From the NCBI GenBank assembly GCA_965231135.1, contig OZ246419.1, forward strand, positions 733,865-797,864: DNA of 64,000 bases, in the 5' to 3' direction. Source of the DNA: an uncultured Gammaproteobacteria bacterium (lineage in GTDB: Bacteria > Patescibacteriota > Microgenomatia > UBA8517). A model generated the notes under the pieces. That model was given only the letters and a program-made list of their open reading frames with translations. It made no database searches and was not told the DNA's origin. This document shows, one piece after another, positions 8,129 through 58,783 of the stretch; the first letter of the stretch is position 1; each line of letters begins with the position of its first letter. The translations under genes and the position numbers were made by a program.

Positions 8129-8132
8129 ACTC

Positions 8133-9895: not shown

Positions 9896-9898
9896 AAG

Positions 9899-27334: not shown

Positions 27335-27992
27335 TCAGTCGGTCTTTTATTTTGTTATATTCGCTTTGTTTTAAAACACTTTTGGAAAGCAACTCTTCAA
27401 CAGCCGAGTACGGTCTGTTATCAATTATTTTTTGACCGTATACTTGGCCTATTCCTTCTAAACTTTCCAGTTCTCCAAGACTTGCAGTGTTAATATTTAT
27501 TTGCCCACTTTCTGATTGTGCGACACTTGAATTTTGTTCATTTGAGCTAGCAATGTCATTGTTTGATTGCTGAAGAGAAGGTATATAGATCTTTTGGCCG
27601 TCTGTTAATTTTGCCGCCTTATTAATATTTTTATCAACCCAGTTTTTATCAGCATTGTCAGTAATTCCTCCGGCTTTTTGTAATGCATCTTCTACTCTAC
27701 TGCCAAAATCCAACTCATAAACTCCAGGGTTTACAACCTCACCTGAGACATCAATTTCTATTTTTAATGAAGCGCTACTTTCTGGACTATTTTCAACTGT
27801 AGAATTTCCTAGCACTTCTTGACTCTGATTGCTTGTAGAATGATTATTGCCTCTCAATATTAAACCTAGAATAACAAGGATTATGCCTAAGCTTAAGAAA
27901 ATGATCTGAAGTTTATATGGAGACGACAAAATTAATAATTTTGCCTGCGACAAAAATGACTTTGTAGTCTTTTCCACTGATCCATTTTTCAA
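27324..27992 (-). CDS. comEA: Competence protein ComEA (TM anchor + SLBB + helix-hairpin-helix)
   Basis: C-terminal HhH ININTASLGELESLEGIGQVYGQKIIDNRPY; TTG start at 27992 overlaps the leuS 3' end by about 80 nt, and alternative GTG/TTG starts exist at 27977 and 27953. Confidence 0.75.
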   Translation of the reverse strand: MKNGSVEKTTKSFLSQAKLLILSSPYKLQIIFLSLGIILVILGLILRGNNHSTSNQSQEVLGNSTVENSPESSASLKIEIDVSGEVVNPGVYELDFGSRVEDALQKAGGITDNADKNWVDKNINKAAKLTDGQKIYIPSLQQSNNDIASSNEQNSSVAQSESGQININTASLGELESLEGIGQVYGQKIIDNRPYSAVEELLSKSVLKQSEYNKIKDRLIVY

Positions 27993-44300: not shown

Positions 44301-44494
44301 CTGGAGCAACAAATGTTATTATTAATACTAATGCTGTTAACAACAGCTCTTTAATCTTTGTAACCGCAAGCACAGCAACAAGCAAGGTTTTAGCGGTAAC
44401 AACAAAGGTTCAAGGAACAAGTTTTACAGTTTCGATTCCGACAGCAGACATCAATAATATTAATTTCAATTGGTGGATTGTTGACAAACAATAA
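38324..44494 (+). CDS. Giant (2056 aa) membrane-anchored repetitive Ser/Thr/Gly/Asn-rich protein with an N-terminal cytoplasmic HTH (excisionase/MerR-type) domain, one TM helix, and a long beta-helix-like repeat region
   Basis: HTH YISINEAAIKLGVSTKTLRRWEVAGKLIAVRTNGGHRRYEI (nt ~38345-38500); TM ILKIVGFSFFGFILIAGVF (nt ~38690-38747); internal duplicated modules; a non-repetitive Cys-containing C-terminal domain (~43.3-44.5 kb). Confidence 0.75.
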   Translation: MSKLPRNKYISINEAAIKLGVSTKTLRRWEVAGKLIAVRTNGGHRRYEISKLTELKINGFKTPRKEYIKKIVVNQTVSDTPKIIKIDNIVEPLKINPNIITEALPTPIDIYNAPTLAPQQKNILKIVGFSFFGFILIAGVFKISPAVISATNLFKANADNIAVNYFPGMPGAVKSFLSSRNNNFADNKDVASKFGQNVQVLAAETKANVPVFNVNIESSFKQVADFVKGLTSTDVSTGTLEASDNATFAKNVDISGDLTSSSATFNLLPKNVTSLNIGLTSTTTSISATTGTTTINNDLNVKGATALSGALNVGGKITGSGDLAISGASVLSGALNVSGVTTLASDLSAAGNATFGNITKVNGVTYSFPTTQGAGGSTLTNDGSGNLSWVSGSGSGTIGFWTRTGTILTPATEGDTIATTGQIGAGTTTPSYQLDIQNPISANNGILANFALSNSNTGAGIITNGINVSATGSIPASGTNTNNLINLSAITAGSNTFNGINFGSGLSNYINSTNFIVTAAGAETLNSSLVAVGVNAQSGLLQGTGGLTLTGTTNINSTGVANTTVGNTSGTLALSSNAFNLDTSGNITGVPSLDTINVSSTALTFAGAGTIDSGTANALNLGTGNNAKTINIGTGNAGNIINIGTNDTTADAINIASAKDTTTLAGNISLTNLSLGTGSALCLDGSNNLVTCTTGTGGISGSGASGQIAYYNGASSITGNNSFFWNTATTQLGIGTNSTTAGVTIAENSGDLIDAGTTSSTKFTLDNSGNILVSPSTRYDTLTSGTLGVGTTNATTVNVGNLSSTTNLIGATNINTTGSGNTTIGNGSGTVALNLGSDATGDIYYRNSGGTLSRLGIGSSGQTLTVSAGIPSWVGGSGGTGSSGFWSRTSGGVLSPATATDTFNLAPNTTNGTGVNAGFNLQANSLTSGNAVDISSSSITSGNLLSLSSTSTAFTSGAIANLSWSPSASTTATGDLLKLNVGSNGILGNILDVQNNGSTIFGVSQTQIIAALPTQFTAAGDVGFAYDVNFTNPVASNIKSSSNLNIAAGETFNSSDLTLTTYNAGNILLNTGTSSTGNGKVGIGPSVTPTSLLTVNNANELSNIGQSLALFNQTENQDIMTASNSGTTRWTLGYQGNITGTAVNTSGNSYSYTNTALNTTSANLQALAFTNAASSGSITVSGENITATGTATSGTNTNNLVNLSVAAAASNNTFNGINFGSNLTNYINGTNWVVTAAGNETIAGINVTGLTANSAVYTDGSKNLTTSAPSSGALGYWTRTGTTLSPTTSGDAVTTSGNISTTGSGTITSASDLAVNGSNFTSSSSSFNLLNSTPTTINFGGNATTALNIGNGNSAYTAINFGSGTGGNTIGIGNGANTGAQTINIAAGAAGANSTVNILSGIATSGTQTLNLGTGASAKTVNIGNSTGATALNFTSGTGAQTFASSVVTGTTTSGAFAFNANSLTTGDGLYLNSSSITTGNLLNITSTSTAFTSGNLASIYWNPGSSTTATGDLLKLNVGSNGILGNILDVQNNGSTIFGVSQTQISNNLPVSFNAPGDIVDAYDFSFTNPVSSNIKSSAPLTIAAGEIFNSSNLTLTTYNLGNILLNSGTSTGGNGLVGIGPSVSPTSLLTVDNTNELSTIGQSLVLLNQTESQDILTASNSGTTRFKINSAGNTFTTLRSTGTAALCHTTNGAGFDEITDCSGTPAADYAEFYPTDGSVDYGDIVAPSSQTVTTKVSDGQGGIITGQTQQTSVLTKSSLAYQGNVIGIVSNNYNDFTSTGYNIVDPSNNPKPVALNGRVPVKIATDSPEIAPGDYLTTSDQPGRATKATQAGRVIGMALENWSSSSGKDTVLVFVNNTWYDPNADAIAATGSAQLNNIALMLQDSFTASDSGIIANLHELDTAKLNVLGDTTLGDTVVNGKLNVGGLTFDDTNQSINAIGVLKIQDLALGNVEFMNGLITFDTNGNAKFQSVTANKYNVAGTSAGTGTITAGATNVIINTNAVNNSSLIFVTASTATSKVLAVTTKVQGTSFTVSIPTADINNINFNWWIVDKQ
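41235..41346 (+). repeat. 112-nt direct repeat (copy 1) inside the giant gene, part of a roughly 1.6-kb diverged internal duplication
   Basis: Identical to 42849-42960 except one mismatch (gtgagcc vs gtaagcc); encodes GDLLKLNVGSNGILGNILDVQNNGSTIFGVSQTQI. Confidence 0.85.
42849..42960 (+). repeat. 112-nt direct repeat (copy 2)
   Basis: See copy 1; the flanking protein sequence is about 70% identical over roughly 500 aa. Confidence 0.85.
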
Positions 44495-47400
44495 TGAAAA
44501 AACTTTTCAAAAGAAAACCAAAATTATTTTACGGACTTATACTATTTATAGTAGTTATATCTTTAGTTGGAATAAAACTTTGGGCGGGTAAACCAGTACA
44601 AGGAGCATGGTTTGATACCAAGTGGGCTTTTCGACAACGCTTCCCTATTTCCAATACCTCCGGTGCAACACAAACAAATTTTCAGACGCAAATAACATTA
44701 GACACTTCAACATTAATAAGTGCAGGGAAAATGCTTTCGACTTGTAACGATTTGCGAATTACAAATGCAACTGGAAAACAACTTCCTTTTTGGATAGAGC
44801 CAACTACATGCAATACAGCTTCAACTTTAATCTGGATAAATGTTGATTCGATTCCAACAACAGGAGCTGATGTTTATTTATATTATGGAAATCCATCTGC
44901 AAGCCCTGCAGGGTATACAACTAACCAAGTTTTTATTACAGATATGAATCAAGCTGTTGCGGGTTGGCCTTTGGATGATACAACCACTACCCAAAGTTAT
45001 GCGAGAGCAGTGAATGGTGCGACTAGTACAGGAAGAAATTTAGTTTTAAACGGAACTTTTGATAGCAGCTCAAGTTGGAACTTTAATGGGACAGGTTGGA
45101 CTATTTCTGGTGGGATGGGAGTGGCTACAAACGCACAAACTACTGACCTTACTTATCAAAATGTTCCTTTGGTAGCTGGAAGAAGTTATCAAATCACTTA
45201 TACCATTTCTGGTTATACCTCAGGAAGTGTCAGGGTTCTCGCAGGAAATGGTGGCTTTGGAACGATGCGCTCAGCAAATGGAACATACACTGAAAATATT
45301 ATTGCAGCCGGAGCTTTATATGTGGGATTCCAAATTCCAGTGAATGGAACAACCCTAAATATTGATAACGTTTCAGTTACTGAAGTAAACATTCCCTCTT
45401 CTACTGCAACACCAACACAATTACTTACTGATGGAAATATGGAAGCAAGTGGGACGGGGGCGTGGACAGCAGGCGGAAGCGCAACACTTTCGAAACAAAC
45501 AGGGACTTCCCATGGAGGAACACAAATTTTAAGAATCACTGCAACCGGTGGTACAAATCCTAATGCTTCTCAGAATATTCTTTCTAACAATACTGTTTAC
45601 AGGGTTTATGGATATGCAAGAAGTGATGGGAATATTGCACCTAAAGTTTATTTGGGAAGTAATCTTATGTGGACTGGAACAACATCGGCAACCTGGCAAC
45701 CGTTTGACTTTGTAGGTTTAACTTCTACGGGTAATAGTACTTTTTATCTGCTTCAATCAAGCAGTATAAATGGCCAATATGTAGAATTTGACGACGTAAC
45801 AGTTTCCCTTGATACAGGCATAAGAAGTGATTCTATTTTATCTACACTTGATGGAGATATGGAACAGTCTGGGACTTCTTACTGGAGCACATTAAATGGC
45901 GCTACGATCTCGAAAGATGCCAGCAGTCCACATGGCGGAACTCAATCTTTAAAGATAGTCAGCTCTGGCGCCTCAAGCCAGAATGTATACCAGACTTACC
46001 TATCTAGCGTTGCAGGAAAAACTTATCGAATTACTGGGTACGCAAGAGGAGATGGAACTGCTGTTCCTCAAATTCTTTTACCAAACGGAGCTGCTTTGTG
46101 GACCGGAACAAATTCAAGTTCTTGGCAATCATTTGATGCAACGTATGTATATGTAGCTGCTTCTCCATACGGATCTCCAATTTTAAGGCCTCAAAATACT
46201 GCTCCTAACGGCGATTATGTTGAATTTGATGATATTATCATTAACGAAGTCGATCCTCTAGTTGGAATCCCTACAAACGGAGTAACTCTTGGAGCTAGTG
46301 CAAACGGCCATCTCACTAATGCATATTCTTTTGATGGCACAAATGATAATGTGAATATTTATTCAGGAAGCTTAAATTCTGTCTTTAATCCTTCTGAAGG
46401 AACAATTGTGGCATGGGCAAAAGTAAGTGGAGCTGGAGTGTGGACAGATGGAACTCAGAGAGTGATTGTGAGAATTGGCCGTGTGGATGGAAATAATAAT
46501 TTAACTATTTCCAAAAGCGCGTCATCTAATACACTTACGGCTTCTTATGTTGCTGGAGGGTCAAATTTAACTGCTAATACAACTACTTCAACAAGCGGAT
46601 GGTTTATGGTTACACTAAGCTGGTCTAAGAGCAGTGACCAGGTTAAACTTTATTTAAACGGCACGCAATCAGGATCGACTTTGACAGGAGTTGGTACATG
46701 GAGCGGAAATTTTCAAAGCGTTAACTCAGTTATTGGAGATGCAAGTACAACACCCGGTTTTCCATGGAGCGGGCTCATTAATGATGTACGAATTTATAAT
46801 TACGCATTAACACCGGCCCAGATTGCCGCACAATACAACGCATCTTATGACACACAAAACTACACAACTGCAAACGATACAGGACACGAATTGGTGCGAG
46901 AGTACAATACAAACATTACAGTTGGAGCGGCTGCAACAGAAGAAGTTGGGCAAGCTTCAATATTAAACTGGCATTTGGACGAAGGAAATGGAACAACTGC
47001 AAACGATGCAAGCACAAATGCAAATAACGGAACTTTAGCTGGCACTACTCCACCATCCTGGCAAACTGAAAATAATTGTGTAATTGGTAAATGTTTGCTT
47101 TTTGACGGACAGAGCTCAAAAATAACTGGAACAAAGGCAGCTAATAATTTGCAAACTGTAGCTTTCTGGATTTATCCAACTGATATAACAAGCCGCGGGA
47201 TTATGAACTTAGACGGCGGAACTCACAAAATATCTTTGAGTTCGTCTGGAATTGTAACTGCTACAGGCTGGTCTTCTCCAACATATTATGTAAATGGTAT
47301 TGCAACAACAAATCCTGTTTTATCCTTAAATCAATGGCAGTATGTGGAAATTACAACAGCAACACCTTTCTCTACTTCAAGCTCTTTTACAGTCGGGACT

Positions 47401-50400
47401 GACGGGAGCACTTTTACACAAGGATATTTGGATGAAATAAAATTTTATAATTATGCAAGAAGTGCTGCACAGGCACTTGCGAATTACAATTCTGTCGGAA
47501 ATTTGATTGGAGCTGCAAGACAATACGGACCAAACGGATTAATTGCAAACTGGGGGCTACAAGATACAACTTCTACACAAAGTTATGCAAGTGTAAGCAA
47601 TGCAGGACAAAGTACTGGACGTAATATAGCTGTTGACGGAGACATGGAAGCCTCAGATACAAGTGCGTGGACAAATGCAGGTTCTGGAGCAGCTTTTACC
47701 AAAGATACAACTAATCCTCATGCTGGATCTAGAGATTTGAGAATTACTTGGGTGTCAGGATCTAATCCTTTGGCACAGTTAGTTAGCAATCCAATAGTAA
47801 TTGGCAGATCATATCGAGTTCGCGGATGGTTTAAATCAGACGGTTCTCATACTTCTGGAGTCTATGACAACTCCACTCCTTTAGCTGTTTCAACTACTGG
47901 AGGTTCCTGGGAATCTTTTGATATTACTTATGTTGCCACTACCACAGGTTTACGTTTTCGTGTCAACACTAGCTCTGCTGGATATGCCGATTTTGATGAT
48001 ATTACAGTTCAGGAAGTTAATATTCCTTCTTCTGCAACAACACCAGCTCAACTACTTACTGATGGAAATATGGAAACTTCTGGAACTGCTGCATGGACAG
48101 CAGGTTTTTCAGCAACTTTATCAAAACAAACAAACAACCCTCATAGTGGTGCTCTAGTATTAAGAGTAGCTTCAAATGGCTCGCTTCAAGGGTATGCGGG
48201 TCAGAATATTCTTACGGTAGGAAATGTCTATCGTATTTATGGTTATGCAAGAAGTGATGGAACCGCTATTCCCAAAATTGCAGGAAACTCTGTAACATAT
48301 TGGGGCTCTGGAACAAATTCAACAACCTGGCAACCTTTTGATGTTGTGTTAGTAGCTAGTAGTGGATCCTTATTGGCTCTCCAAAATCAGACCACAAGTG
48401 GCTATGTTGAGTTTGATGATGTGACAGTTTCACTTGATACTGGAATAAGATCTGATTCTATTTTGTCTACTCTTGATGGAGATATGGAACAAAGTGGAAC
48501 GAGCTACTGGACAGCTGCAAACGCTGCTACGCTTTCAAAAGATTCATCTGCTTCTCATGGTGGAACTCAAGCTTTAGAAATCTTATGTACTGGCACAGGA
48601 AATCCTGCTGCGAGGCAAACGCCACTTTTAACTGGCAAAACCTACAGGTTGACTGGCTGGGCAAAAGGCGATGGTACAGTTGGCCCATCAGTCGTTGTTG
48701 CTTCAGGTGCAATTTGGACTGGAACAGCTTCGACTTCGTGGCAATTTTTTGATGTAAGTTGGATTGCAACTTCTAATTTAATCAGTCTTGTCGCTGCTAC
48801 TTCTAGCAGTGGTAAATTTGTGGAATTTGACGATCTTACATTAACTGAAATTTCACCTCTTTCTGGAATAAATACAAACGGAGTAACTGTAGGAGCTGCT
48901 GCAAACGGACATTTAACTAATGCATATAGTTTTGATGGGACAAATGATTTTGTAAATATTTATTCAGGAAGTTTGAATAGCGCCTTTAATTCAAGTGAGG
49001 GCACACTTATTGCGTGGGCTAAAGTGAATGGAAGTGGAGTTTGGACAGATGGCTCAGTTAGGAGAATTGTTAGTTTGTCAGTTGACGGCAGCAATCTCAT
49101 TTCATTGGCAAAATCAAATGCAAATAACACGCTTATTATGCAATATTATGCTGGTGGTACAGCTTCTTATGTCTCTAACGGTTCTGACCCAAGTGGTTGG
49201 TTTCAAATTGCTATTACCTGGAGTAAGTCAACCGATCAAGCAAAAGGTTACCTTAACGGCACCCAACAAGGGGCGACGATGACAAATTTGGGTACATGGG
49301 CAGGAAACCTTACTTCTAGCAGAGTCACTATTGGAGCCGACACGACTTCAGGTTCCAATCCATGGTCTGGCCTCATCAACGACGTCCGTCTTTATAACCG
49401 CGCTTTATCCCCTGCTGAAATTTCACAGCTTTATAACTATGCTCCAGGGCCTGTTGCTTACTGGAAGATGGATGAAGGCACTGGAACAAATGTCAATGAT
49501 TCATCAGGAAATGGGAATACTGGAACATGGAATGGAACTTTAGGGAGTCAATGGGCTAGTGGAAAATATGGAAAAGGAGGAAACTTTAATGGGACTGATA
49601 ATTATGTTTCTGTCTCAAGTTCAAATACTTTGGGTCCCACTGCAATTACTATGGCAGCTTGGGTAAAATTACCGTCGGGTTTTGCTTCAAATGGTGATGT
49701 AATAAACAGAGGAGATAATAGTGGTTACAGAATGCAAATCACGGCGGGAAAAACAGTTGCTTTTGATGATCGTGGAGCTACCAATCAGGTTAATCCATCC
49801 ACGACCTTAACTACTGGAGTTTGGAATCATATAGAAATGGTTGGTGATTCTTCTGGCCTAAAAGTTTATTTAAATGGGGTATTGATTGGAAGCAATTCTA
49901 CAGCCTATGGAGGAACAAATACAGGAAATCTCTTAATAGGTAGCCGTTTTACCAGTTCTGGATATTTGCCAGCAGTTATTGATGATGTGAAAATTTATAA
50001 TTATGCAAGAACTCCTCAACAAATTTTAGATGATATGAATGGCGGACAAAACGCAAACAATTTGTCTGCGCAAGGAAATAGTTTGCCCAAACCTTTGGAC
50101 TATTGGAAATTTAATGAAGGTTATGGAACAACAGCAAACAACTCTGGAGTTAACTCAACGGAAACTGGAACATTAAATAGCGCAACATGGTTGCTTAATA
50201 ATAATTGCAAAGCTAATAATTGTGTAAATATATCTGCAAGTACTAATAATGTTTCTTTTGGAGATGTTAGTTATATTGATTCTCTAACTGGTTTTTCAAC
50301 TGACTTTTGGGTAAATCCGCAGGTTTTGGGTACTTCTAAGATGATACTTTCAAAAGCGAACACTAGTTCGCAGCGAGTTTTCGCAATCGAGACAGATCCC

Positions 50401-52242
50401 TCTACTAATAGTGAAATAAGAGTATTTGTTTCATCAAGTGCTTCTGATACAAGTAATTTCTGCAAAACAACTGGACTTGGACTAACTACTGGAACTTGGC
50501 AGCATTTAGCAATTGTTTATGATGGCACTGGACCTACTATTACTGTATATAAAAACGGAAATCCTATTACCTGTACTGTAACCGGCACTATTCCCTCTTC
50601 TTTAGTTTCAGGAACTACAAGCAATTTGAAACTTGGGCAGGGAGATGATTCAACGCCAACTGCACTTCTTGCATATTATGATGATCTTAAAATTTATAAT
50701 ACTGCCCTATCACAATCGCAAATATTATTAGATCAAAACGGCGGACAAGCTGAAGACTTTGGAACAAGAAGCGCGCCTGAAGCAAATCAATTAACAGATA
50801 CTGCTGGAAACCCACCAGTTGCTTACTGGAATTTTGATGAAGGAACTGGATCCACCGTCAATGATTCCAGCGGAAATTCTAACACAGGCACTTGGCAAGG
50901 AACACTAGGAAATCAGTGGGCAACAGGCAAATATGGTAAAGGAGGAAATTTTAATGGAAGCGATAATTATGTAAGCACTAACACTTCTACAAGTACCACT
51001 ACTATGCCAAATTTTACAAGTGAGGCTTGGTTTAAAACAGGAACTGCTTCTGGACACGATATAATTTCACTTGGTGGAACTCAAACAGGGACAGACAATA
51101 GTCATTCGAGAGATTTATACATGGGTGCTGACGGAAAAATTTATTTTGGAATTGCAGACGGTGGATCAAATATTTATACAGTAAATTCACTCTCAACTCT
51201 TAATGATGGCAAGTGGCATTTTGCAGTTGGAACTTATACGAGCTCTACTAAGGCAATAGCTCTTTATATTGACGGAGTATCGCAAGGAACCACAAATGAC
51301 ACAGGTGAATCAAGTTTTTCAGGCTGGTGGCGTATTGGAAGTTATAGGTTAACAGCTTGGACGCAAGCTTCGGATGGTTATTTCACAGGTCAAATTGACG
51401 ACGTCAAAATCTACAATTACGCCCGAACTCAAGCTCAAATTGCATATGATTATAACCGTGGGGCGCCAGTTGGATGGTGGAAATTTGATGAATGCCAGGG
51501 AACTACAGCTAATGATTCATCCGGGAACAGAAACACAGGAACAATAACAATTGGAGGAAGCGGAACTCAAACTTCTGCAGGAACCTGCAACACAAGCGGA
51601 ACTGCCTGGGGAAACGGTGTCGTCGGAAAGTTTGATTCTTCCCTTAATTTTGATGGAACTGACGATTATGTCAACACTAATTCTACCTTTAGTTCAATTT
51701 TCCAAAACAGTTACAGTATTTCCTTCTGGATGAAGCCAAGTAATGGACATCCTGCAGGCATTCAAAGCATGTTTGGGAATGCTGAAAGTGTAAGTTGTGG
51801 AGGAAACCCATGTATTGTCAAATCGTTCTTAAACGGTGATGGAACAATTGAATTTCAGTTTCAACCGGGGGGAGCTACTACTGCTGATGCAAAGACAAAT
51901 AATGCTATTTTTGCAAGTGGACAAGGAAACTGGACACATGTAACAATTGTTGCCAATTCTACAATCAATGGTATTGGAGGAATTTTGATTTATATTAATG
52001 GACAACTTGCAACATTAAATGCAACAAATAACGGAAGTACTGCTAGTGTTACTTTTTCTGGTTATACTGCTATTAATAAACTATTCCTTGGAGCCCGTGA
52101 TAGTGGAACTGCTAGCCAACTTTTTAGTGGCCAAATTGATGATGTCAGAATTTATAACTATGCCCTATCACTTACACAGGTGCAAAAACTTTATAATGAC
52201 GGATTTAGCACTTTTTACGGACCTAGCACAGGTACTCCATAA
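44494..52242 (+). CDS. Giant (2582 aa) N-terminally anchored surface protein: DUF2341 domain, multiple CBM4/9-like carbohydrate-binding modules and multiple LamG/concanavalin-A-like lectin domains
   Basis: ATG overlaps the upstream stop (TAATG); TM LFYGLILFIVVISLVGIKLW; DUF2341 signature WAFRQRFPI...DLRITNATGKQLPFWIE...VYLYYGN; repeated LamG units ending ...GLINDVRIYNYAL(T/S)PAQI...; CBM-like units QLLTDGNMEASGTGAWTA...YVEFDDVTVS. Confidence 0.8.
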   Translation: MKKLFKRKPKLFYGLILFIVVISLVGIKLWAGKPVQGAWFDTKWAFRQRFPISNTSGATQTNFQTQITLDTSTLISAGKMLSTCNDLRITNATGKQLPFWIEPTTCNTASTLIWINVDSIPTTGADVYLYYGNPSASPAGYTTNQVFITDMNQAVAGWPLDDTTTTQSYARAVNGATSTGRNLVLNGTFDSSSSWNFNGTGWTISGGMGVATNAQTTDLTYQNVPLVAGRSYQITYTISGYTSGSVRVLAGNGGFGTMRSANGTYTENIIAAGALYVGFQIPVNGTTLNIDNVSVTEVNIPSSTATPTQLLTDGNMEASGTGAWTAGGSATLSKQTGTSHGGTQILRITATGGTNPNASQNILSNNTVYRVYGYARSDGNIAPKVYLGSNLMWTGTTSATWQPFDFVGLTSTGNSTFYLLQSSSINGQYVEFDDVTVSLDTGIRSDSILSTLDGDMEQSGTSYWSTLNGATISKDASSPHGGTQSLKIVSSGASSQNVYQTYLSSVAGKTYRITGYARGDGTAVPQILLPNGAALWTGTNSSSWQSFDATYVYVAASPYGSPILRPQNTAPNGDYVEFDDIIINEVDPLVGIPTNGVTLGASANGHLTNAYSFDGTNDNVNIYSGSLNSVFNPSEGTIVAWAKVSGAGVWTDGTQRVIVRIGRVDGNNNLTISKSASSNTLTASYVAGGSNLTANTTTSTSGWFMVTLSWSKSSDQVKLYLNGTQSGSTLTGVGTWSGNFQSVNSVIGDASTTPGFPWSGLINDVRIYNYALTPAQIAAQYNASYDTQNYTTANDTGHELVREYNTNITVGAAATEEVGQASILNWHLDEGNGTTANDASTNANNGTLAGTTPPSWQTENNCVIGKCLLFDGQSSKITGTKAANNLQTVAFWIYPTDITSRGIMNLDGGTHKISLSSSGIVTATGWSSPTYYVNGIATTNPVLSLNQWQYVEITTATPFSTSSSFTVGTDGSTFTQGYLDEIKFYNYARSAAQALANYNSVGNLIGAARQYGPNGLIANWGLQDTTSTQSYASVSNAGQSTGRNIAVDGDMEASDTSAWTNAGSGAAFTKDTTNPHAGSRDLRITWVSGSNPLAQLVSNPIVIGRSYRVRGWFKSDGSHTSGVYDNSTPLAVSTTGGSWESFDITYVATTTGLRFRVNTSSAGYADFDDITVQEVNIPSSATTPAQLLTDGNMETSGTAAWTAGFSATLSKQTNNPHSGALVLRVASNGSLQGYAGQNILTVGNVYRIYGYARSDGTAIPKIAGNSVTYWGSGTNSTTWQPFDVVLVASSGSLLALQNQTTSGYVEFDDVTVSLDTGIRSDSILSTLDGDMEQSGTSYWTAANAATLSKDSSASHGGTQALEILCTGTGNPAARQTPLLTGKTYRLTGWAKGDGTVGPSVVVASGAIWTGTASTSWQFFDVSWIATSNLISLVAATSSSGKFVEFDDLTLTEISPLSGINTNGVTVGAAANGHLTNAYSFDGTNDFVNIYSGSLNSAFNSSEGTLIAWAKVNGSGVWTDGSVRRIVSLSVDGSNLISLAKSNANNTLIMQYYAGGTASYVSNGSDPSGWFQIAITWSKSTDQAKGYLNGTQQGATMTNLGTWAGNLTSSRVTIGADTTSGSNPWSGLINDVRLYNRALSPAEISQLYNYAPGPVAYWKMDEGTGTNVNDSSGNGNTGTWNGTLGSQWASGKYGKGGNFNGTDNYVSVSSSNTLGPTAITMAAWVKLPSGFASNGDVINRGDNSGYRMQITAGKTVAFDDRGATNQVNPSTTLTTGVWNHIEMVGDSSGLKVYLNGVLIGSNSTAYGGTNTGNLLIGSRFTSSGYLPAVIDDVKIYNYARTPQQILDDMNGGQNANNLSAQGNSLPKPLDYWKFNEGYGTTANNSGVNSTETGTLNSATWLLNNNCKANNCVNISASTNNVSFGDVSYIDSLTGFSTDFWVNPQVLGTSKMILSKANTSSQRVFAIETDPSTNSEIRVFVSSSASDTSNFCKTTGLGLTTGTWQHLAIVYDGTGPTITVYKNGNPITCTVTGTIPSSLVSGTTSNLKLGQGDDSTPTALLAYYDDLKIYNTALSQSQILLDQNGGQAEDFGTRSAPEANQLTDTAGNPPVAYWNFDEGTGSTVNDSSGNSNTGTWQGTLGNQWATGKYGKGGNFNGSDNYVSTNTSTSTTTMPNFTSEAWFKTGTASGHDIISLGGTQTGTDNSHSRDLYMGADGKIYFGIADGGSNIYTVNSLSTLNDGKWHFAVGTYTSSTKAIALYIDGVSQGTTNDTGESSFSGWWRIGSYRLTAWTQASDGYFTGQIDDVKIYNYARTQAQIAYDYNRGAPVGWWKFDECQGTTANDSSGNRNTGTITIGGSGTQTSAGTCNTSGTAWGNGVVGKFDSSLNFDGTDDYVNTNSTFSSIFQNSYSISFWMKPSNGHPAGIQSMFGNAESVSCGGNPCIVKSFLNGDGTIEFQFQPGGATTADAKTNNAIFASGQGNWTHVTIVANSTINGIGGILIYINGQLATLNATNNGSTASVTFSGYTAINKLFLGARDSGTASQLFSGQIDDVRIYNYALSLTQVQKLYNDGFSTFYGPSTGTP

Positions 52243-52267
52243 GAGATAGAATGAATATATTTAATAA

Positions 52268-55200
52268 ATGAAAAAAGGGCTGAAAATTTTACGACTCAAA
52301 TTTTCAAAATATTACAGACAAAGACCTAAACTTTTTTTTGGGACGATTTTACTTGTCACTATTTTACTTTTGGTGGGGATTAAACTTTGGGCGGGAGGCC
52401 TGGTAAAAGGTGCCTGGTTTGATAACAACTGGGCTTACAGACAAAGAGTTGATATAACTGTTTCTTCAAATTCAAGCGATGTAAAGAATCTTGAAACTTT
52501 GATGACAATTAACACATCAAGCCTAGTTTCTGCCGGCAAATTGCAAAGTTCGTGTCAAGATTTACGGTTTACAAACATACATGGCGATTCTTTACATTAT
52601 TATATTGATTCAGGGTGCAATACTTCTACCACAAAAGTTTGGGTGATGGTTGATCTTGTTCCTAAAAATACCACTACTTATTCGCTTTATATGTATTATG
52701 GAAATCCGACAGCAACTGCGGGATCAAGTTCGACTTTTTTTGATAATGTTGTTCATTTGATGGGCTATTGGACTATGAACGAATCCAGCTGGAACGGAAC
52801 TGCTGGAGAGGTAAAAGATTCCAGTGTTACGGGAGGAAACGGCGGTGGGCTCTGTACAGGAACAGGATGCTCAATACCTTCTACAACCACTGGAGAATAT
52901 GGTAATGCCGCAAGCTTTGCAACAAGCGGCACAACAAATGAGCAATATGCTCTTATTCCTGATAATAATTTTATAAATATTACTGGCGATTTTACAATTG
53001 AGATGTGGATTAATCCTGCAAGCTCTAGCCAGAATGCAAATAACGACATTCTTCGTAAAGAATCTACGAATAACGGATTTGGTATTGAGGCCACTGGAAG
53101 TAATTTAACTTATGTCGCTGGATGGAAAAATGGAGCAACTAATAATTGTTATACCACTAACACTTTTAGCTTAAGTGCGAGTACATGGCAACATCTTGTG
53201 ATTACAAAAAGCGGAACAACAAGAACTGTTTATATAAATGGGGCAATTCAGGGAGGTGCAACCTGTACTGGAACAAACGCAACAATTTCTTCAAGCAATG
53301 GAGCTGCGCTTAATATTGGAGGCTGGTCTTTACAAACCACACGAGGATTTAACGGAAAAATTGATGATGTTAAACTTTATAATACAGCAAGAAGCGCAGC
53401 TCAAATATCGGCTGATTATACAAATACAAGCTGCGGGGGCTTAGCGTGCGCCATTGCCAGTTCAACTGTGCCGGTTACAACTCCGACTACTTCGTTTGCC
53501 TCAGAAGAAGTCACTCCTGGAGCAATTCTAACTTATAAGTTTGATGAAAATATGGGAACGACAGCAAACGATTCAACAGCAAATGCAAATAACGGGACAC
53601 TTGGCGGGACAACTCCCCCATCCTGGCAAACTTCAGATCAGTGTGTTAGTAACACTTGTTTATTCTTTGATGGCCAAAGCTCAATTGTGACGGGTAGTAA
53701 AGTCGCTACCGGAATCAAATCTATCTCTTTTTGGATCAGGCCAAGTAATATCGGCAAACAAGGGATTCTTAATCTAGATGGCGGGACACATAAGGTTTCC
53801 ACTAATGAGTCTGGAGTAATCAGCGCCACTGGTTTTAGTTCACCGACTTACTATATTAACGGCACGGTTACTACCACTCCAACTCTGACTTTAGGACAAT
53901 GGAACTATGTCACGATTACCACTGGCACCAGTTTTAATTCAACTTCCAGTTTTACGCTGGGAACTGATGGAGTCACTTTTGCAGGCGGGTATGTAGACGA
54001 AGTGCAATTTTATAATTATGTGCGAACTGCAGCTCAAGTGCAATCTGGATATAATCTGGGGGCTTCGGCGATTAAGCTAAATCCAACTGTTCCTTTGAAC
54101 AGTTTAGTTGCTTCTTGGCCGCTGGATGACACCACCAGCACCCAAAGTTATGCCAGAGCGGTGACGCCAGGAGCTGGTACAGGAAGAAATATCGTTCTAA
54201 ATGGAGGATTTGATAGTACTTCTAATTGGTTACTAGGCACAGGCTGGACTATTGCAAATGGAGTTGCGCATCAAGATGGTACAGGAAGTGCTGCCTCACC
54301 TATGTATGAAGTTCCAAGTTTGGTAGCTGGTAAAGCATATAAGATTACTTATACAATTTCAAATTATGGAGGCACAGGATCTATCAACTCACAAGTTGGT
54401 TCAGGCGCCGCCAGCTCTCCTCATTCAGGTAATGGTACATATACTGATACTTTAATTGCTCCAACTAATCCTTATCTAGGGATAAATGTTTGGACATCAG
54501 GATTTGTTGGCGACATTGATAATGTTTCAGTTCAAGAGATTAACATTCCTGCCTCTACTGCCACCCCTACCCAACTCCTGACTGATGGAAATATGGAAGC
54601 AAGTGGCACGGGGGCGTGGACTGCAAACAATGCTGCCACATTAAGCAAACAAACAACAAATCCTCACAGCGGAAGTCAATTGTTAAGAGTTGCAAGAAGC
54701 ACAACTAACCTTGCTTATGCCTCTCAAACAATACTTACAACAGGGCAGGTCTACAGAATCTATGGGTATATGAGAAGCGATGGGACAGCTACACCTCAAA
54801 TTGCTCAAAGCGGTAGCAATATTGTTGTTGGGACTGCGTCAACAACTTGGCAGCCGTTTGATGCTGTTTTTGTAGCCACGGGTAATTTCATACAATTAAT
54901 TAATCAAGCGTCCTCAGGTACACCTTATGTTGAATTTGATGACGTGACTGTTTCTCTTGATACAGGAGTAAGATCTGACTCTATTCTTTCAACTCTTGAT
55001 GGAGATATGGAACAGAGTGGAACGAGTTACTGGACAGTTGGAAACGCAGCTACACTGTCCAAGGATTCTTCTGCACCTCACGGAGGAACGAATGCTTTGA
55101 AAGTTGCAAATAGCGGATCTTCTAGTCCTGAAGCTATTGAACTTGTGTTGGTCGCAGGAAAAACATACCACTTAACCGGCTGGGCAAAAGGAGATGGTAC

Positions 55201-58200
55201 TGCAATACCAAGAGTATTAGATGGAACAGCTACTGCAAGATTTACTGGTACAACTTCCACATCATGGCAGCAGATTGATACAACATTTATTAATTCTACC
55301 GGTGCAAGTATGTATTTAACGGCTACTGGAGGAACAACTGGAAATTATGCAGAATTTGATGATATTACAGTTCAGGAAATTTCCCCCCTTTCTGGTCTCA
55401 ACACCAATGGTGTGACTGTGGGGGCAGCTGCAAATGGCCACCTCACCAATGCATATTCTTTTGATGGCACAAATGATAATGTGAATATTTATTCAGGGAG
55501 TTTGAATTCAATCTTTAACAATGATCAAGGAACTTTAGTTGCTTGGGCGAAGTTTACTGGTACATGGTCTGAAGCTGCTGAACGCTATGTTGCTATCATG
55601 CAGACAAATGGTTCAAATGCAGTCGGCATTGAAAAAAGTGGATCTAATACTCTAACTGCTAAGTATGTTGCGAATGGAACCACAAAATCTGTTAATATTT
55701 CTACCTCTACAACTAATTGGTTCCAGGTTGTAATAACATGGGACAAAACAAGTGATCAAGTCAAAATCTACTTTAATGGTAGTCAGTACGGTTCTACTCA
55801 AACAGGATTGGGGACGTGGACTGGAAATTTGACATCAGTTGGTGCAGTCATAGGCTCCGTAAACACTTCTGGTACTTTCCCTTGGTCTGGGATGATTAAT
55901 GATGTCCGCCTTTATAACCGTGCTTTGTCGCCCACAGAAATTTCTCAACTTTACAGCTATGCTCCTGGGCCTGTTGCGTATTGGAAACTTGATGAGGGCA
56001 CCGGTAGTACCGCTTTTGACGTGTCCGGTAACTCCAATACCGGCACTTTGACTGGTTCTCCAACGTGGACCACTGGTAAAGTTGGTAAAGCGTTAAATTT
56101 TAATGGCAGTAGCCAATACATTGTCGGACCCGCGAGCCCCAGTGTGGAAATGACCAGTGGCGTGACTGTTGGCGCTTGGGTGAATCCCAGTGTAGTTGAT
56201 AGTGCCTACCACACTATTGCTGGGAGATGGAAAGTGGGAGGCGATCAACACTATATTTTGCAACTTAATTCAGATAACAAATTCGGTTTCTTTTTTGATA
56301 CCGATGGCGGCGACGCTTCCACTGGACAATTTTTTGTAGAGTCGACGACCACACCGAGTGCCAACACTTGGTATTACGTCGAGGGGGTTTTCGATCCCTC
56401 AACCACCAGTCTAAAAATGTATGTGAATGGGAATCTGGAAGCCACCACCACTGATGCCAGTCTAACTACCGGCGCTGCCGGATCGATAGAATTAACTGCT
56501 GGTTCAAAAAAGAATTCCGGAGGGACTTATATAGAATTCTGGCCGGGGAAGCTGGATGACATCAAAGTCTATAACTACGCCAGAAATCAAACTCAAATTT
56601 TGGATGATATGAGTGGAGGTCAAAGCGCAGGTCCTATTTCTCAAAGTACCGTTCTACCTCAGCCGGTTGGTTACTGGAAATTTAACGAAGGCTATGGAAC
56701 CACCGCCAATAACTCAGGTTTGGGTGGCTCAGCTTTAAACGGAACACTTACGAATATGGCCTCGCCGGCTACTAGTACCTCGGGTTGGCAAACGCCTCAG
56801 TCCGGAAATTGTAAGATTAATGGCTGTCTGGCGTTTGACGGCAGTAATGATTTGGTTAATATTACCGATAATAGTGATACTCTGGGAACCAGCGCAAGTG
56901 ACTTCTCAACCTCTGCCTGGTTTAAAACAACCGATAATAAAAGTTTTAACGGTATCATTTCAAAAGGATTTAACAGCCACTGGCAATATGCAATGTATTT
57001 AGCTGCAGGACTTCCCAAATGTCAGCTTTTTCAGAATGGTTCTGGATCTACCTATTTATCGTTTACTGGGACCAGAACTCTTAATGACGGGGTATTTCAT
57101 CACATAACCTGTACTTTTTCTGCTTCTACTACTACGCTTACTTTATATGTAGATGGCAACAAAATTGGTTCTTCTAATACCACGTCGGGCAGCAGAGATA
57201 CATCTACTGGATCTAAAGTTGTTCTTGGAGCTTTTGCTGATAACAGCAGCGATAATTTTGACGGACTTATTGACGAAGTCAAAGTCTATAATACTGCTCT
57301 TACCCAGCAGCAAGTTCAGGCTGACATGAACGCCAGTTCGGTTGTAAATAACGGAACAACCGCTGCAAACGAAGCGTCTCTTCTTATGGGCGGCGCTGGG
57401 AACCCTCCTGTTGGATACTGGAATTTTGAAGAAGGCACCGGTACCACTGCTCACGACGCAAGCGGAAACGCGAATAACGGGACTTTGACTAACGGTCCAA
57501 CTTGGACTGTCGGCAAGATAGGCAAAGCAGTTAAGTTTGATGGGAGCAATGATTATATTGATGTAGGAAGCGGATCTTCTTTGGGCCCCAGCACTGTAAC
57601 GATTTCTGCCTGGATTGATCCTTCCAGCAGCTGGTCAGATTACGGAAACATTCTTTCAAATAATGACAATAGCGGTTTTAGAGTGCGAGTAAATAATGAC
57701 TTAACACTCACCTTTTTGGACCGAGGACCAACTAATAATGTATCAACAACTGCTACTATTCCTTTAAATACTTGGACTTATGTAACTTTTGTTGGAGATT
57801 CAGCCGGTTTAAAGATCTATATCAATGGAACTTTAAGTGCGAGTAATGCCGTTGCTTTTAATAAGGGAACAACTGGCGACACTGTTATTGGGGCGCGATC
57901 CACAATAAGTTCGCTAGAAATTTTCAAGGGGGTAATTGATGAAGTCAAGGTATATAACTATGCTAGAACTCAAGCTCAGATTGCATATGACTATAACCGG
58001 GGGGCACCAGTTGGCTGGTGGAAAATGGACGAATGCCAGGGAACAACACTAAATGATTCAAGCGGAAACGGAAATGCCCTAACGCTTAGTGTTGGTGGCA
58101 GTGGGACCCAGACTGCTATTGGGACATGCAACACTTCTGGGACTGCCTGGGGAAATGGCGCAACGGGGAAATTTAATTCATCGCTTAACTTTGACGGAAA

Positions 58201-58741
58201 TGACGACTATGCTGATAAAGCTTCTCCTTCCAGTGGTGTCTTATTGGGAGCTTTAAGTTCATATTCTATCTCAGCCTGGTTTAGGACCACTTCTACTACC
58301 AATGATTTGGTGCTTTACTCTGAAACCAATTCCTCAACTAATACGCCCGCAGTACTGATTATGGTTAATCGCAACACTATTGGGGGGGTTGGGACATATA
58401 AACGAGATGATTCAGGGAACACAGATGATTTTACCGGCGGACGAAATTTGGGTGCAAATGATGGAAATTGGCATAATTTGATTGGTGAACGAAATGGCAA
58501 CACCTTGTATGTTTATTTTGATGGCAAATTAATTAATACCACTTCAGGCTCGGCCGGGACGGCTACCACGAACAGAATCACTATTGGCGCCCAAGGCAGA
58601 ACGTCAGGGTTAATTAATTACTTCCCAGGGCAAATTGATGAGGTAAAAGTTTATAATTATGCCCTTTCGAGTTCGCAGGTGCAAGAAGTTTACAATCAAG
58701 GAGCGGCTTTGCGGTTTGGACCGACTTCTGGAAATCCGTAA
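52268..58741 (+). CDS. Giant (2157 aa) paralog of the preceding gene (TM, DUF2341, CBM-like and LamG-like modules)
   Basis: Same architecture; WAYRQRVDITV...DLRFTNIHGDSLHYYID...LYMYYGN; shares near-identical nt tracts with 44494..52242 (e.g. 46318-46367 = 55448-55497). Confidence 0.8.
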   Translation: MKKGLKILRLKFSKYYRQRPKLFFGTILLVTILLLVGIKLWAGGLVKGAWFDNNWAYRQRVDITVSSNSSDVKNLETLMTINTSSLVSAGKLQSSCQDLRFTNIHGDSLHYYIDSGCNTSTTKVWVMVDLVPKNTTTYSLYMYYGNPTATAGSSSTFFDNVVHLMGYWTMNESSWNGTAGEVKDSSVTGGNGGGLCTGTGCSIPSTTTGEYGNAASFATSGTTNEQYALIPDNNFINITGDFTIEMWINPASSSQNANNDILRKESTNNGFGIEATGSNLTYVAGWKNGATNNCYTTNTFSLSASTWQHLVITKSGTTRTVYINGAIQGGATCTGTNATISSSNGAALNIGGWSLQTTRGFNGKIDDVKLYNTARSAAQISADYTNTSCGGLACAIASSTVPVTTPTTSFASEEVTPGAILTYKFDENMGTTANDSTANANNGTLGGTTPPSWQTSDQCVSNTCLFFDGQSSIVTGSKVATGIKSISFWIRPSNIGKQGILNLDGGTHKVSTNESGVISATGFSSPTYYINGTVTTTPTLTLGQWNYVTITTGTSFNSTSSFTLGTDGVTFAGGYVDEVQFYNYVRTAAQVQSGYNLGASAIKLNPTVPLNSLVASWPLDDTTSTQSYARAVTPGAGTGRNIVLNGGFDSTSNWLLGTGWTIANGVAHQDGTGSAASPMYEVPSLVAGKAYKITYTISNYGGTGSINSQVGSGAASSPHSGNGTYTDTLIAPTNPYLGINVWTSGFVGDIDNVSVQEINIPASTATPTQLLTDGNMEASGTGAWTANNAATLSKQTTNPHSGSQLLRVARSTTNLAYASQTILTTGQVYRIYGYMRSDGTATPQIAQSGSNIVVGTASTTWQPFDAVFVATGNFIQLINQASSGTPYVEFDDVTVSLDTGVRSDSILSTLDGDMEQSGTSYWTVGNAATLSKDSSAPHGGTNALKVANSGSSSPEAIELVLVAGKTYHLTGWAKGDGTAIPRVLDGTATARFTGTTSTSWQQIDTTFINSTGASMYLTATGGTTGNYAEFDDITVQEISPLSGLNTNGVTVGAAANGHLTNAYSFDGTNDNVNIYSGSLNSIFNNDQGTLVAWAKFTGTWSEAAERYVAIMQTNGSNAVGIEKSGSNTLTAKYVANGTTKSVNISTSTTNWFQVVITWDKTSDQVKIYFNGSQYGSTQTGLGTWTGNLTSVGAVIGSVNTSGTFPWSGMINDVRLYNRALSPTEISQLYSYAPGPVAYWKLDEGTGSTAFDVSGNSNTGTLTGSPTWTTGKVGKALNFNGSSQYIVGPASPSVEMTSGVTVGAWVNPSVVDSAYHTIAGRWKVGGDQHYILQLNSDNKFGFFFDTDGGDASTGQFFVESTTTPSANTWYYVEGVFDPSTTSLKMYVNGNLEATTTDASLTTGAAGSIELTAGSKKNSGGTYIEFWPGKLDDIKVYNYARNQTQILDDMSGGQSAGPISQSTVLPQPVGYWKFNEGYGTTANNSGLGGSALNGTLTNMASPATSTSGWQTPQSGNCKINGCLAFDGSNDLVNITDNSDTLGTSASDFSTSAWFKTTDNKSFNGIISKGFNSHWQYAMYLAAGLPKCQLFQNGSGSTYLSFTGTRTLNDGVFHHITCTFSASTTTLTLYVDGNKIGSSNTTSGSRDTSTGSKVVLGAFADNSSDNFDGLIDEVKVYNTALTQQQVQADMNASSVVNNGTTAANEASLLMGGAGNPPVGYWNFEEGTGTTAHDASGNANNGTLTNGPTWTVGKIGKAVKFDGSNDYIDVGSGSSLGPSTVTISAWIDPSSSWSDYGNILSNNDNSGFRVRVNNDLTLTFLDRGPTNNVSTTATIPLNTWTYVTFVGDSAGLKIYINGTLSASNAVAFNKGTTGDTVIGARSTISSLEIFKGVIDEVKVYNYARTQAQIAYDYNRGAPVGWWKMDECQGTTLNDSSGNGNALTLSVGGSGTQTAIGTCNTSGTAWGNGATGKFNSSLNFDGNDDYADKASPSSGVLLGALSSYSISAWFRTTSTTNDLVLYSETNSSTNTPAVLIMVNRNTIGGVGTYKRDDSGNTDDFTGGRNLGANDGNWHNLIGERNGNTLYVYFDGKLINTTSGSAGTATTNRITIGAQGRTSGLINYFPGQIDEVKVYNYALSSSQVQEVYNQGAALRFGPTSGNP

Positions 58742-58783
58742 TTGGGTTGACATAGCTTCCTAAGAAAGGAATAATAAACATAC

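Follow-up and report, generated by a model that had tools for sequence, protein, structure and literature searches.

The locus described here raises the question of what a pair of giant, modular genes does in a member of the Patescibacteria, and whether the sequence blocks which the two genes share are still being exchanged between them. Patescibacteria make up a very large share of bacterial diversity, most of it uncultured, and the mechanism by which they recognise and hold their hosts is largely unknown. The window, by which we mean the whole stretch of 64,000 nucleotides (nt) of contig OZ246419.1 that was analysed, is part of a Patescibacteria chromosome. It contains two tandem open reading frames (ORFs), named A and B here, of 2582 and 2157 amino acids (aa), both on the + strand and with exactly the boundaries reported in a first-pass annotation of the sequence. 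We consider it reasonably probable that A and B are tandem paralogs which diverged long ago, that they belong to a family of giant exported proteins widespread in Patescibacteria of the Microgenomates type, that they form a multivalent glycan-binding attachment fibre, and that the blocks they share are mainly the product of purifying selection.

In order to resolve the architecture of the two proteins, we used in-house hidden Markov models (HMMs) of the modules, built from the window. Whole-protein self-comparison with blastp merged the modules into long, uninformative alignments and was replaced by alignments at module level; for Pfam, the proteins were cut at conserved module ends and the pieces were scanned singly. 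In A, a signal peptide and a DUF2341 domain were found to be followed by a cassette of three modules resembling carbohydrate-binding modules (CBMs) and one LamG module (Ca-Cb-Cc-La), by the LamG module Lb, by a second cassette (Cx-Cb-Cc-La) and by the LamG array Lc-Ld-Le-Lf. The layout of B is signal peptide-DUF2341-Lz-Lb-[Ca-Cb-Cc-La]-Lc-Ld-Le-Lf, and B is colinear with residues 596-2582 of A at 43% identity. Seven LamG modules were counted in each protein with the module HMMs. The two cassettes of A are 55% identical in aa and 59% in nt sequence, their duplication being visible in the DNA as the repeat families D1, D2, D6, D10 and D12 with a spacing of about 2.6 kb, and the B cassette is 57% and 55% identical in aa sequence to cassettes 1 and 2 of A, respectively. 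A and B are thus paralogs with a common DUF2341 head, CBM-type jelly rolls and LamG arrays, predicted to be extracellular, as had been proposed.

The Pfam scan bore out the two principal domain assignments. DUF2341 (PF10102; gathering score 23.4 bits) was matched at 54.1 bits in A (aa 84-147) and at 44.4 bits in B (aa 96-158), while Laminin_G_3 (PF13385; gathering score 27.6 bits) was matched at 389 bits in A and 457 bits in B, six stretches of each protein passing on their own. The motifs DLR(I/F)TN and (V/L)Y(L/M)YYGN, quoted as signatures of DUF2341, are present in both proteins, whereas the third one, W-x-YRQR, holds for B (WAYRQR) and not for A, which reads WAFRQR. Cysteines occur mainly in close pairs, as they do in secreted proteins.

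The assignment of the C modules as CBM-like was borderline when judged by profile scores. Against CBM_4_9 (PF02018; gathering score 25.9 bits), Cb and Cc of cassette 1 scored 26.7 and 20.3 bits, Cx, Cb and Cc of cassette 2 scored 26.0, 18.1 and 22.0 bits, and Cb and Cc of the B cassette scored 22.2 and 31.9 bits; the isolated Ca modules of cassette 1 and of the B cassette gave no match to this family. However, an AlphaFold2 (AF2) model of Ca, with a predicted local distance difference test (pLDDT) score of 83 overall and 90-98 in the core blocks, was matched by Foldseek to CBM29, CBM4, CBM16, CBM22 and CBM70 (E = 5e-5 to 2e-4, template modelling score 0.44-0.55), and also to the CBM-like domains of Vip3/Cry toxins (E ~5e-5). 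With the Ca model matching CBM folds, the term CBM-like holds at fold level for nine of the nine C modules, all of them being CBM-like in their predicted fold.

The DUF2341 domain was modelled by AF2 as a compact beta-sandwich (pLDDT 90). A search of the PDB with this model returned nothing significant, the best match being the beta-sandwich of an alpha-mannosidase at E = 7e-3, and the fold therefore gives no functional lead. No glycoside hydrolase or other catalytic domain was found in the Pfam scan of A and B at E <= 0.01, and the GH16-type motif E-x-D-x-x-E was not found in either protein. The other matches to concanavalin A (ConA)-like families were all of the lectin type, namely Pentaxin, the Sialidase N-terminal lectin domain and Toxin_R_bind_N. 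When B was compared with the sequences in the PDB, only weak matches to single modules were obtained, including 4qvs and 5hon. The fimbrial protein TafC (NCBIfam NF052521) was considered and rejected as a relative, since A and B scored 120 and 179 bits against a cut-off of 410 bits and matched model positions 149-364 only, apparently TafC's own LamG-like part. A C-terminal propeller domain of the PilY1 type was likewise absent from the Pfam scan of both proteins.

The N-terminal hydrophobic segment of each protein had been read as a transmembrane (TM) anchor in the first-pass annotation, a reading that appears unlikely. The N-termini of A and B consist of a basic n-region, a hydrophobic stretch of about 20 aa and a short polar segment, after which DUF2341 begins; a prepilin-type motif was absent from them. 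Across 48 family members the putative cleavage point directly precedes the conserved [AGS]W[FYW][DN] start of DUF2341, with Ala at position -1 in 45 of the 48 and a small or aliphatic residue at position -3 in about 45. Signal peptidase I sites follow this (-3,-1) pattern, which makes cleavage and release likelier than N-terminal anchoring. The segment is probably a cleavable Sec signal peptide rather than a TM anchor, and in B it is predicted to cover aa 1-48 with cleavage between VKG and AWFD. At the other end of the protein, about half of the family carries a conserved tail of the form ...(R/F)(F/Y)GPx(T/S)GxP, and the remaining members end right after RFG.

A protein search with the gene A product retrieved 87 homologs at E < 1e-20. 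More than 60 homologs are 1700-2600 aa long and follow the layout N-Ca-Cb-Cc-La-(LamG)n-Ld-Le-Lf, and three (P0002, P0003 and P0005) have the double-cassette layout of A and align with 99-100% of its length at 44-47% identity. The relatives come from Shapiro-, Roizman-, Davies-, Levy-, Woese- and Moranii-bacteria and from WWE3, as well as from many groundwater, sediment and peat metagenomes. The number of modules, as determined with the module HMMs, differs among homologs, and tandem arrays are the rule, 48 of 74 loci having at least two giant ORFs in the same orientation. The protein, genome and metagenome collections yielded no strain-level relative, nothing in them being closer than about 47% protein identity; the best matches in the genome and metagenome scans were 26-43% identical. 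A profile of the DUF2341 N-domain collected 9487 cluster representatives at E <= 1e-10, with the domain often in multiple copies in proteins of 4000-7800 aa. As judged from their sequences, in which the layout and both conserved ends match, A and B belong to a large, unnamed patescibacterial DUF2341-CBM-LamG family. The locus adds no new principle; it is a clean and complete example of a recurrent family, and with its fixed module grammar, probable signal-peptide site, conserved termini and conserved three-gene neighbourhood it offers a concrete experimental target.

The Ca-Cb-Cc-La cassette was also observed, at about 50% identity, in a separate family of proteins of about 1500 aa which contain fn3, Pur_ac_phosph_N and SH3 domains (P0038, P0043-P0055, P0058, P0065 and P0066). 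Cassettes therefore move between architectures.

Ongoing gene conversion between modules had been proposed on the grounds of recurring peptide blocks and of one stretch of identical DNA. The blocks and motifs which had been listed were all present within a few bases of their reported places: SLDTG(I/V)RSDSILSTLDGDMEQSGTSYW occurs three times (nt 45805, 48430 and 54953), RTQAQIAYDYNRGAPVGWWK(F/M)DECQGTT at 51424 and 57965, and GPVAYWK(M/L)DEGTG at 49447 and 55967. As conversion tracts, however, the peptide blocks could not be upheld, for they contain many synonymous differences. The same codon is used at 23-32 of the 51-54 identical residues in the SLDTG blocks, at 33 of 63 in the RTQAQ block and at 13 of 33 in the GPVAYWK block. 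The RTQAQIAYDYNRGAPVGWWK and GPVAYWK blocks are conserved family-wide, including in P0002-P0005 from other genomes, and their conservation marks them as inter-domain junctions under purifying selection and not as conversion tracts. The case calls for some caution in general, since peptide blocks that modular paralogs share without change usually represent conserved domain junctions and conversion is better called from synonymous sites. The RSDSILSTLDGDMEQSGTSYW part of the first block, including a length difference of two residues, is specific to this genome and present in all three copies; relatives carry R.GEL.QDG.MEASGT in its place.

The identical DNA, a run of 50 nt shared by cassette 1 of A and the cassette of B, was confirmed to the base and lies beyond chance. 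The identity ends sharply, not one base being extendable on either side, and the flanks are about 65% identical. In simulations under two codon-aware null models such a run did not arise once (0/2000, p<0.0005), and the analytic probability of 16 identical codons in a 50-nt block is 3e-6 if codons are drawn independently, rising to about 1e-4 when codon identity is raised to the level observed. All remaining exact runs between the paralogs are of 26 nt or less, and the longest runs in the other aligned comparisons, 23 nt, were not significant (p = 0.06-0.23). In other genomes, the DNA encoding this peptide block agrees with the 50-mer at just 38-39 of 50 nt; there is therefore no constraint on the DNA across genomes, and the identity arose within this genome.

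Overall, the compared copies are 54-60% identical in nt sequence. At identical degenerate residues, A and B use the same codon at a frequency of 0.43-0.44 against 0.40-0.42 expected from codon usage, which indicates that synonymous sites are saturated. Cassette 1 has a slight excess of codon identity with both other cassettes (0.51 observed against 0.41 expected with cassette 2, and 0.50 against 0.40 with the B cassette). In neighbour-joining (NJ) trees, the three copies of the window were monophyletic with bootstrap support of 91% for Cb and 70% for Cc, and in the identity matrices Cc was 55-60% identical within the genome against 41-51% across genomes, with no such excess for La. In P0003, P0004 and P0005 a protein's own two cassettes never grouped in the tree of any segment (<=1/200 replicates), and in P0002 they grouped for Cc only, with 27% support; across genomes, first cassettes tend to pair with first and second with second. 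The lineage-specific RSDSILSTLDGDMEQSGTSYW in all copies and the clustering of Cb and Cc within the genome together argue for a homogenisation that is old and not current.

It is likely, then, that this genome carries one 50-nt conversion patch and the trace of an old Cb-Cc homogenisation. As far as their sequences tell, A and B are an ancient, highly diverged pair with nothing that indicates ongoing exchange. Of the conversion proposal, the single tract stands while the word ongoing is unsupported, and the gene-conversion reading of the shared blocks is weakly supported. Exact tracts of 30-288 nt between giant ORFs were detected in 19 of 48 multi-giant loci (18 of 47 related loci and the window itself), so that short conversion patches are a trait of the family.

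In the related loci these tracts cluster at the 5' side, in the upstream region, the signal peptide and the start of DUF2341, and loci L044, L050, L066 and L012 are further cases. Examples of tracts are those at 4607/9803 in L032 (288 nt), 9851/19811 in L034 (197 nt) and 10139/15695 in L067 (107 nt). Their position suggests a preferential homogenisation or a shared regulation of the gene heads. The A/B pair has no tracts at its 5' ends, and its N-terminal regions are 58% identical in nt sequence.

How the proteins might work can be outlined as follows. Each would be exported by its Sec signal peptide, which is probably cleaved right before AWFD, and the mature chain would consist of beta-sandwich domains, 14 in A and 12 in B, arranged as a fibre of the beads-on-a-string type. 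Its order would be one N-terminal DUF2341, one or two cassettes (each with three jelly rolls of the CBM4/9 type and one LamG module), the LamG array and the ...RFGPxTGxP tail. The most likely role of such a chain is that of a multivalent, non-catalytic, glycan-binding fibre at the cell surface, which would hold the ultrasmall cell to the envelope of a partner or host cell or to polysaccharide. The products of the two adjoining genes, named U (upstream) and W (downstream), probably act together with A and B, U perhaps as a stalk and/or sensor and W perhaps in glycan transfer. The family would diversify by duplication, loss and shuffling of whole modules, with occasional short conversion patches between neighbouring paralogs. 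An attachment role had been suggested at the outset, and it agrees with what has been proposed for concanavalin/LamG proteins of the candidate phyla radiation (CPR) (PMC11310336, PMC12911398, PMC11809585). DUF2341 is common in giant Patescibacteria proteins, for which domain reshuffling by recombination has been suggested (PMC11809585).

Several observations weigh against this interpretation or parts of it. The C-termini of A and B contain no LPXTG, no TM segment and no known sorting signal which would retain the proteins at the surface, and the 64-kb window has no genes of a type IV pilus (for a pilin, PilB/C/M-Q or a prepilin peptidase), although DUF2341 has been linked to pilus adhesins (PMC4858521). 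The CBM_4_9 matches are marginal, with three of nine modules reaching the gathering score. Glycan binding is proposed from the fold class, and LamG and CBM-like folds are also known to bind proteins; the role of every family member is at present a proposal from sequences and models. For the old homogenisation, NJ support for La was just 31% and the cassette as a whole was not monophyletic, and the clustering within the genome comes from NJ bootstraps of short, highly diverged alignments. Informative sites along the cassette, scored for which two of the three copies agree, gave a mosaic with a chi-square p = 2e-12 over all sites, a value which unequal constraint between the copies can inflate; when limited to codons at which all three residues are identical, the test gave p = 0.056.

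A first alternative is that A and B continually swap modules by conversion or recombination and thereby switch a lectin repertoire, akin to antigenic variation; this appears improbable to us. In Neisseria pilE/pilS and Borrelia vlsE, one expressed gene is accompanied by silent partial cassettes with conserved flanks, exchange is frequent and RecA-dependent, and nt identity is high. A and B resemble these systems in being neighbouring paralogous surface-protein sequences with at least one identical DNA patch. Unlike them, both genes are complete, with start codons and signal peptides, and apparently expressed, no silent cassette or other partial copy of A or B was found elsewhere in the window, and an nt identity of 54-60% with saturated synonymous sites lies far below what RecA-type exchange usually needs. 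The 50-nt tract, the lineage-specific junction block common to the three cassette copies, the mosaic of informative sites, the exact tracts of up to 288 nt in related loci and the variable module number would all suit continual variation, an idea also raised for other giant Patescibacteria proteins (PMC11809585), but the significant tract is a single one, short and sharp-edged, and two of the three peptide blocks are conserved throughout the family. Variation as the target of a diversity-generating retroelement (DGR) was rejected. The window contains four exact repeats of at least 24 nt, all within the giant genes, and none resembles the template repeat/variable repeat (TR/VR) pair of such an element; the Pfam scan, which covered 47 ORFs but not a few others of at least 120 aa, gave no reverse transcriptase and no phage gene.

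Somewhat less remote, though still unlikely, is a role in the cell's own envelope, where A and B would form an S-layer-like coat or a wall matrix that binds the cell's own wall glycans instead of a host. The best PDB sequence match of B is indeed an 'S-layer domain-containing protein' (4qvs, E = 1e-5), but the similarity is weak and confined to a single LamG module, and the Pfam scan gave neither an SLH nor another wall-binding domain. The share of the three giant genes in the contig, 2.5% of 810,692 bp, would fit an abundant structural product, and the adjoining Wzy_C-like protein hints at a link to surface polysaccharide; the high divergence and the turnover of modules, on the other hand, are what one would expect of an interaction surface under diversifying pressure rather than of a conserved coat. 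There is very little to be said for the view that A and B are secreted enzymes which degrade or process polysaccharides for feeding, as concanavalin-like glucanases with CBMs would. The concanavalin-like superfamily does include glucanases, modules of the CBM4/9/16/22/29 types normally accompany glycoside hydrolases, and the accessory domain of an extracellular arabinanase (5hon) is among the PDB matches, yet the scans described above found no catalytic domain or GH16-type motif, and every ConA-like match was to a lectin-type family. Least credible of these possibilities is that the repeats and the tandem pair arose in assembly, or that the region belongs to a prophage or mobile element. Collapse of the repeats had been named in the first-pass annotation as an outcome that would overturn its reading; although the genome was assembled from a metagenome, the copies of the repeats, with 60-84% identity (at most 84% over 173 nt) and no more than 50 exact bases in common, are too diverged to collapse or mis-assemble. 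The exact product of gene A is on two contigs, one of them of 810,692 bp, and the same architecture and tandem order recur in dozens of independent assemblies. Phages of CPR bacteria can carry LamG/concanavalin genes (PMC11310336), but the flanks here are core genes and the rise in GC is mild.

If A and B are taken as attachment fibres, the systems with which they can be compared differ from them in instructive ways. The DUF2341 giants of Patescibacteria noted in the description of Patescibacterium danicum belong to the same phylum and are also very large and predicted to be extracellular, and a role in adhesion or host interaction, with reshuffling by homologous recombination, has been put forward for them (PMC11809585). 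Unlike A and B, those proteins exceed 4000 aa, combine FhaB-type with DUF2341 domains and have no full-length homologs (PMC11809585), whereas A and B reach 2582 and 2157 aa, carry a single DUF2341 at the N-terminus ahead of their CBM-like and LamG modules, and share their layout with more than 60 homologs. Lectin domains of the concanavalin/LamG type also occur on predicted surface proteins of episymbionts among the CPR bacteria and DPANN archaea, for which a part in attachment to host cells has been proposed (PMC11310336, PMC12911398). These proteins form a broad category, for which neither the DUF2341 - three CBM - LamG cassette - LamG array - tail architecture, nor tandem arrays, nor genes for a MerR-HTH giant and a Wzy_C/TPR protein linked to them as seen here have been described in those papers (PMC11310336, PMC12911398). 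The closest analogy in organisation is Giant1-5 of Apilactobacillus kunkeei, consecutive genes for very large extracellular proteins that take up a few percent of a small genome (PMC12863079). These paralogs are deeply diverged, with no sign of recent conversion within the cluster although short recombination events were found; unlike A and B, they consist of beta-solenoid and alpha-helical repeats, belong to another phylum and lifestyle, and are covered by population data (PMC12863079). The large, secreted DUF2341 proteins encoded in type IV pilus loci of Methanococcus are inferred adhesins and were proposed to be PilY-like tip adhesins (PMC4858521). They are encoded together with pilins and ATPases (PMC4858521), whereas the present window has no pilus gene and A and B have no PilY1-type domain.

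Table 1. Genes and features of the locus, in positions of the 64,000-nt window
Feature	Position	Strand	Description
Gene U	38324..44494	+	2056 aa; MerR/excisionase-type helix-turn-helix (HTH) at aa 9-56, Pfam MerR 39 bits
Gene A	44494..52242	+	2582-aa ORF; 6 CBM-like and 7 LamG modules
A, predicted Sec signal peptide	44494..44604	+	aa 1-37; inferred signal peptidase I site between VQG and AWFD
A, DUF2341 domain	44605..44952	+	Pfam 60 bits on the isolated segment; invariant Cys84 and Cys106
A, cassette 1	44953..46848	+	Ca aa 154-299, Cb 300-440, Cc 441-586, LamG La 587-785
Cb/Cc junction block SLDTGIRSDSILSTLDGDMEQSGTSYW	45805..45885; copies 48430-48510, 54953-55033	+	Peptide identical or nearly so
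50-nt tract	46318..46367 = 55448..55497	+	Encodes NAYSFDGTNDNVNIYSG, start of LamG La (A cassette 1; B)
A, cassette 2	47494..49437	+	Cx-Cb-Cc-La, aa 1001-1648; internal duplicate of cassette 1
A, C-terminal LamG array Lc-Ld-Le-Lf	49438..52239	+	Laminin_G_3 best stretch aa 1699-1844; tail ...FYGPSTGTP
C-terminal tails	52213-52239 (A), 58712-58738 (B)	+	Compared with P0002-P0063
Gene B	52268..58741	+	2157-aa ORF; 3 CBM-like and 7 LamG modules
B, cassette Ca-Cb-Cc-La	54062..55957	+	aa 599-1230
Gene W	58784..60829	+	681-aa polytopic membrane protein; TPR repeats, Pfam TPR_11 36 bits

U, A, B and W are four tightly packed ORFs on the + strand (Table 1). The stop codon of U and the start codon of A overlap as TAATG, and the A-B and B-W gaps are 25 and 42 nt long. 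No terminator-like site was found in either gap, and a sigma-70-like site with 11 of 12 positions matched lies at 58747-58775, just upstream of W. The scan which gave these sites was at the level of shuffled sequence overall (45 promoter-like sites against 47.7, and 13 terminator-like sites against 13.9) and was used solely for the terminator-free gaps and the one strong site before W.

The U protein has, after its HTH, a single TM segment at about aa 119-145, followed by an ectodomain of about 1900 aa which is rich in S, T, N and G and gave no Pfam matches; a faint match resembling K1-lyase_C was seen at the C-terminus, and the C-terminal third gave chance-level matches only when compared with PDB sequences. 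A sliding nucleotide comparison revealed an internal duplication of about 750 nt (41050-41800 against 42664-43414) at 51-87% nt identity, which includes an exact tract of 98 nt (41234 = 42848), the longest exact repeat in the window. We found 47 homologs of U of 1200-3500 aa; nearly all have the HTH, and a few end in Peptidase_S74, the tail-fibre chaperone. A U-like gene lies upstream of, and on the same strand as, a DUF2341-LamG gene in 23 of 47 related loci and elsewhere on the strand in about ten more, and in L017 and L030, whose N-termini are complete, the U-like HTH is present. W was matched to Wzy_C (O-antigen ligase) at 16.6 bits, below the gathering score of 31.7, and against PDB sequences only its TPR repeats were matched. 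Homologs of W are located directly downstream of a LamG giant in at least six loci (L057, L035, L007, L049, L011 and L099).

On the evidence of this synteny, A and B are part of a conserved cluster of U, one or more LamG giants and W. U may act as a transcription factor that is tethered to the membrane and carries a fibre-like sensor, and W could be an O-oligosaccharyltransferase of the PglL/PilO type that acts on the S/T-rich giants. It is tempting, although speculative, to go further and to see in the cluster a three-component surface module of the Microgenomates type, made up of an HTH-TM fibre giant (ectodomain of 1200-3400 aa), one to four DUF2341-CBM-LamG giants and a Wzy_C-like/TPR protein. 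The HTH giant would then couple surface events such as host contact to transcription, and possibly serve as a docking stalk for the lectin giants, while the Wzy_C-like protein would be a PglL/PilO-type O-oligosaccharyltransferase or a ligase working on the S/T-rich proteins. Our literature search found no paper that describes such a three-component module of HTH giant, LamG giant and Wzy_C-like protein. Should the linkage to U be functional, it would provide a direct route of signalling from the surface to the DNA in organisms which have very few regulators.

The product of gene A is identical to an NCBI record, 'DUF2341 domain-containing protein [Patescibacteria group bacterium]', and that of U to a 'MerR family DNA-binding transcriptional regulator' of the same organism; an exact look-up of the gene B product returned no identical record. 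A and B make up 1.76%, and U, A and B 2.52%, of the 810,692-bp contig, which is the longest record carrying gene A and the sole measure of genome size used for these shares. The locus is flanked by housekeeping genes, among them the F-ATPase operon and the genes for iPGM, LeuRS, ArgRS, Rho, an M23 peptidase, MreB, NusG, ribosomal proteins L11, L1 and L10, and tRNAs. GC content is about 0.33 in the flanks against about 0.40 in the giant genes.

Three further features of the window were recorded. On the - strand, six genes at 7229-12866 encode a GATase/Peptidase_C26 protein, three RimK-like ATP-grasp ligases, a sugar-transfer-associated ATP-grasp protein and a 7TM_transglut membrane protein, which suggests the synthesis of a peptide or poly-amino-acid modification. 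On the + strand, a 290-aa ORF without a Pfam match (5298-6170) lies between the genes of L1 (4607-5296) and L10 (6231-6758) and interrupts the otherwise conserved L11-L1-L10 operon. DNA-uptake machinery of the ComEC/ComEA type is typical of CPR genomes, and at 26459-27992 on the - strand, adjoining LeuRS, we observed genes for a ComEC-type protein with a 'Competence' domain (291 aa, which is short for ComEC) and for a ComEA-like SLBB/HHH protein.

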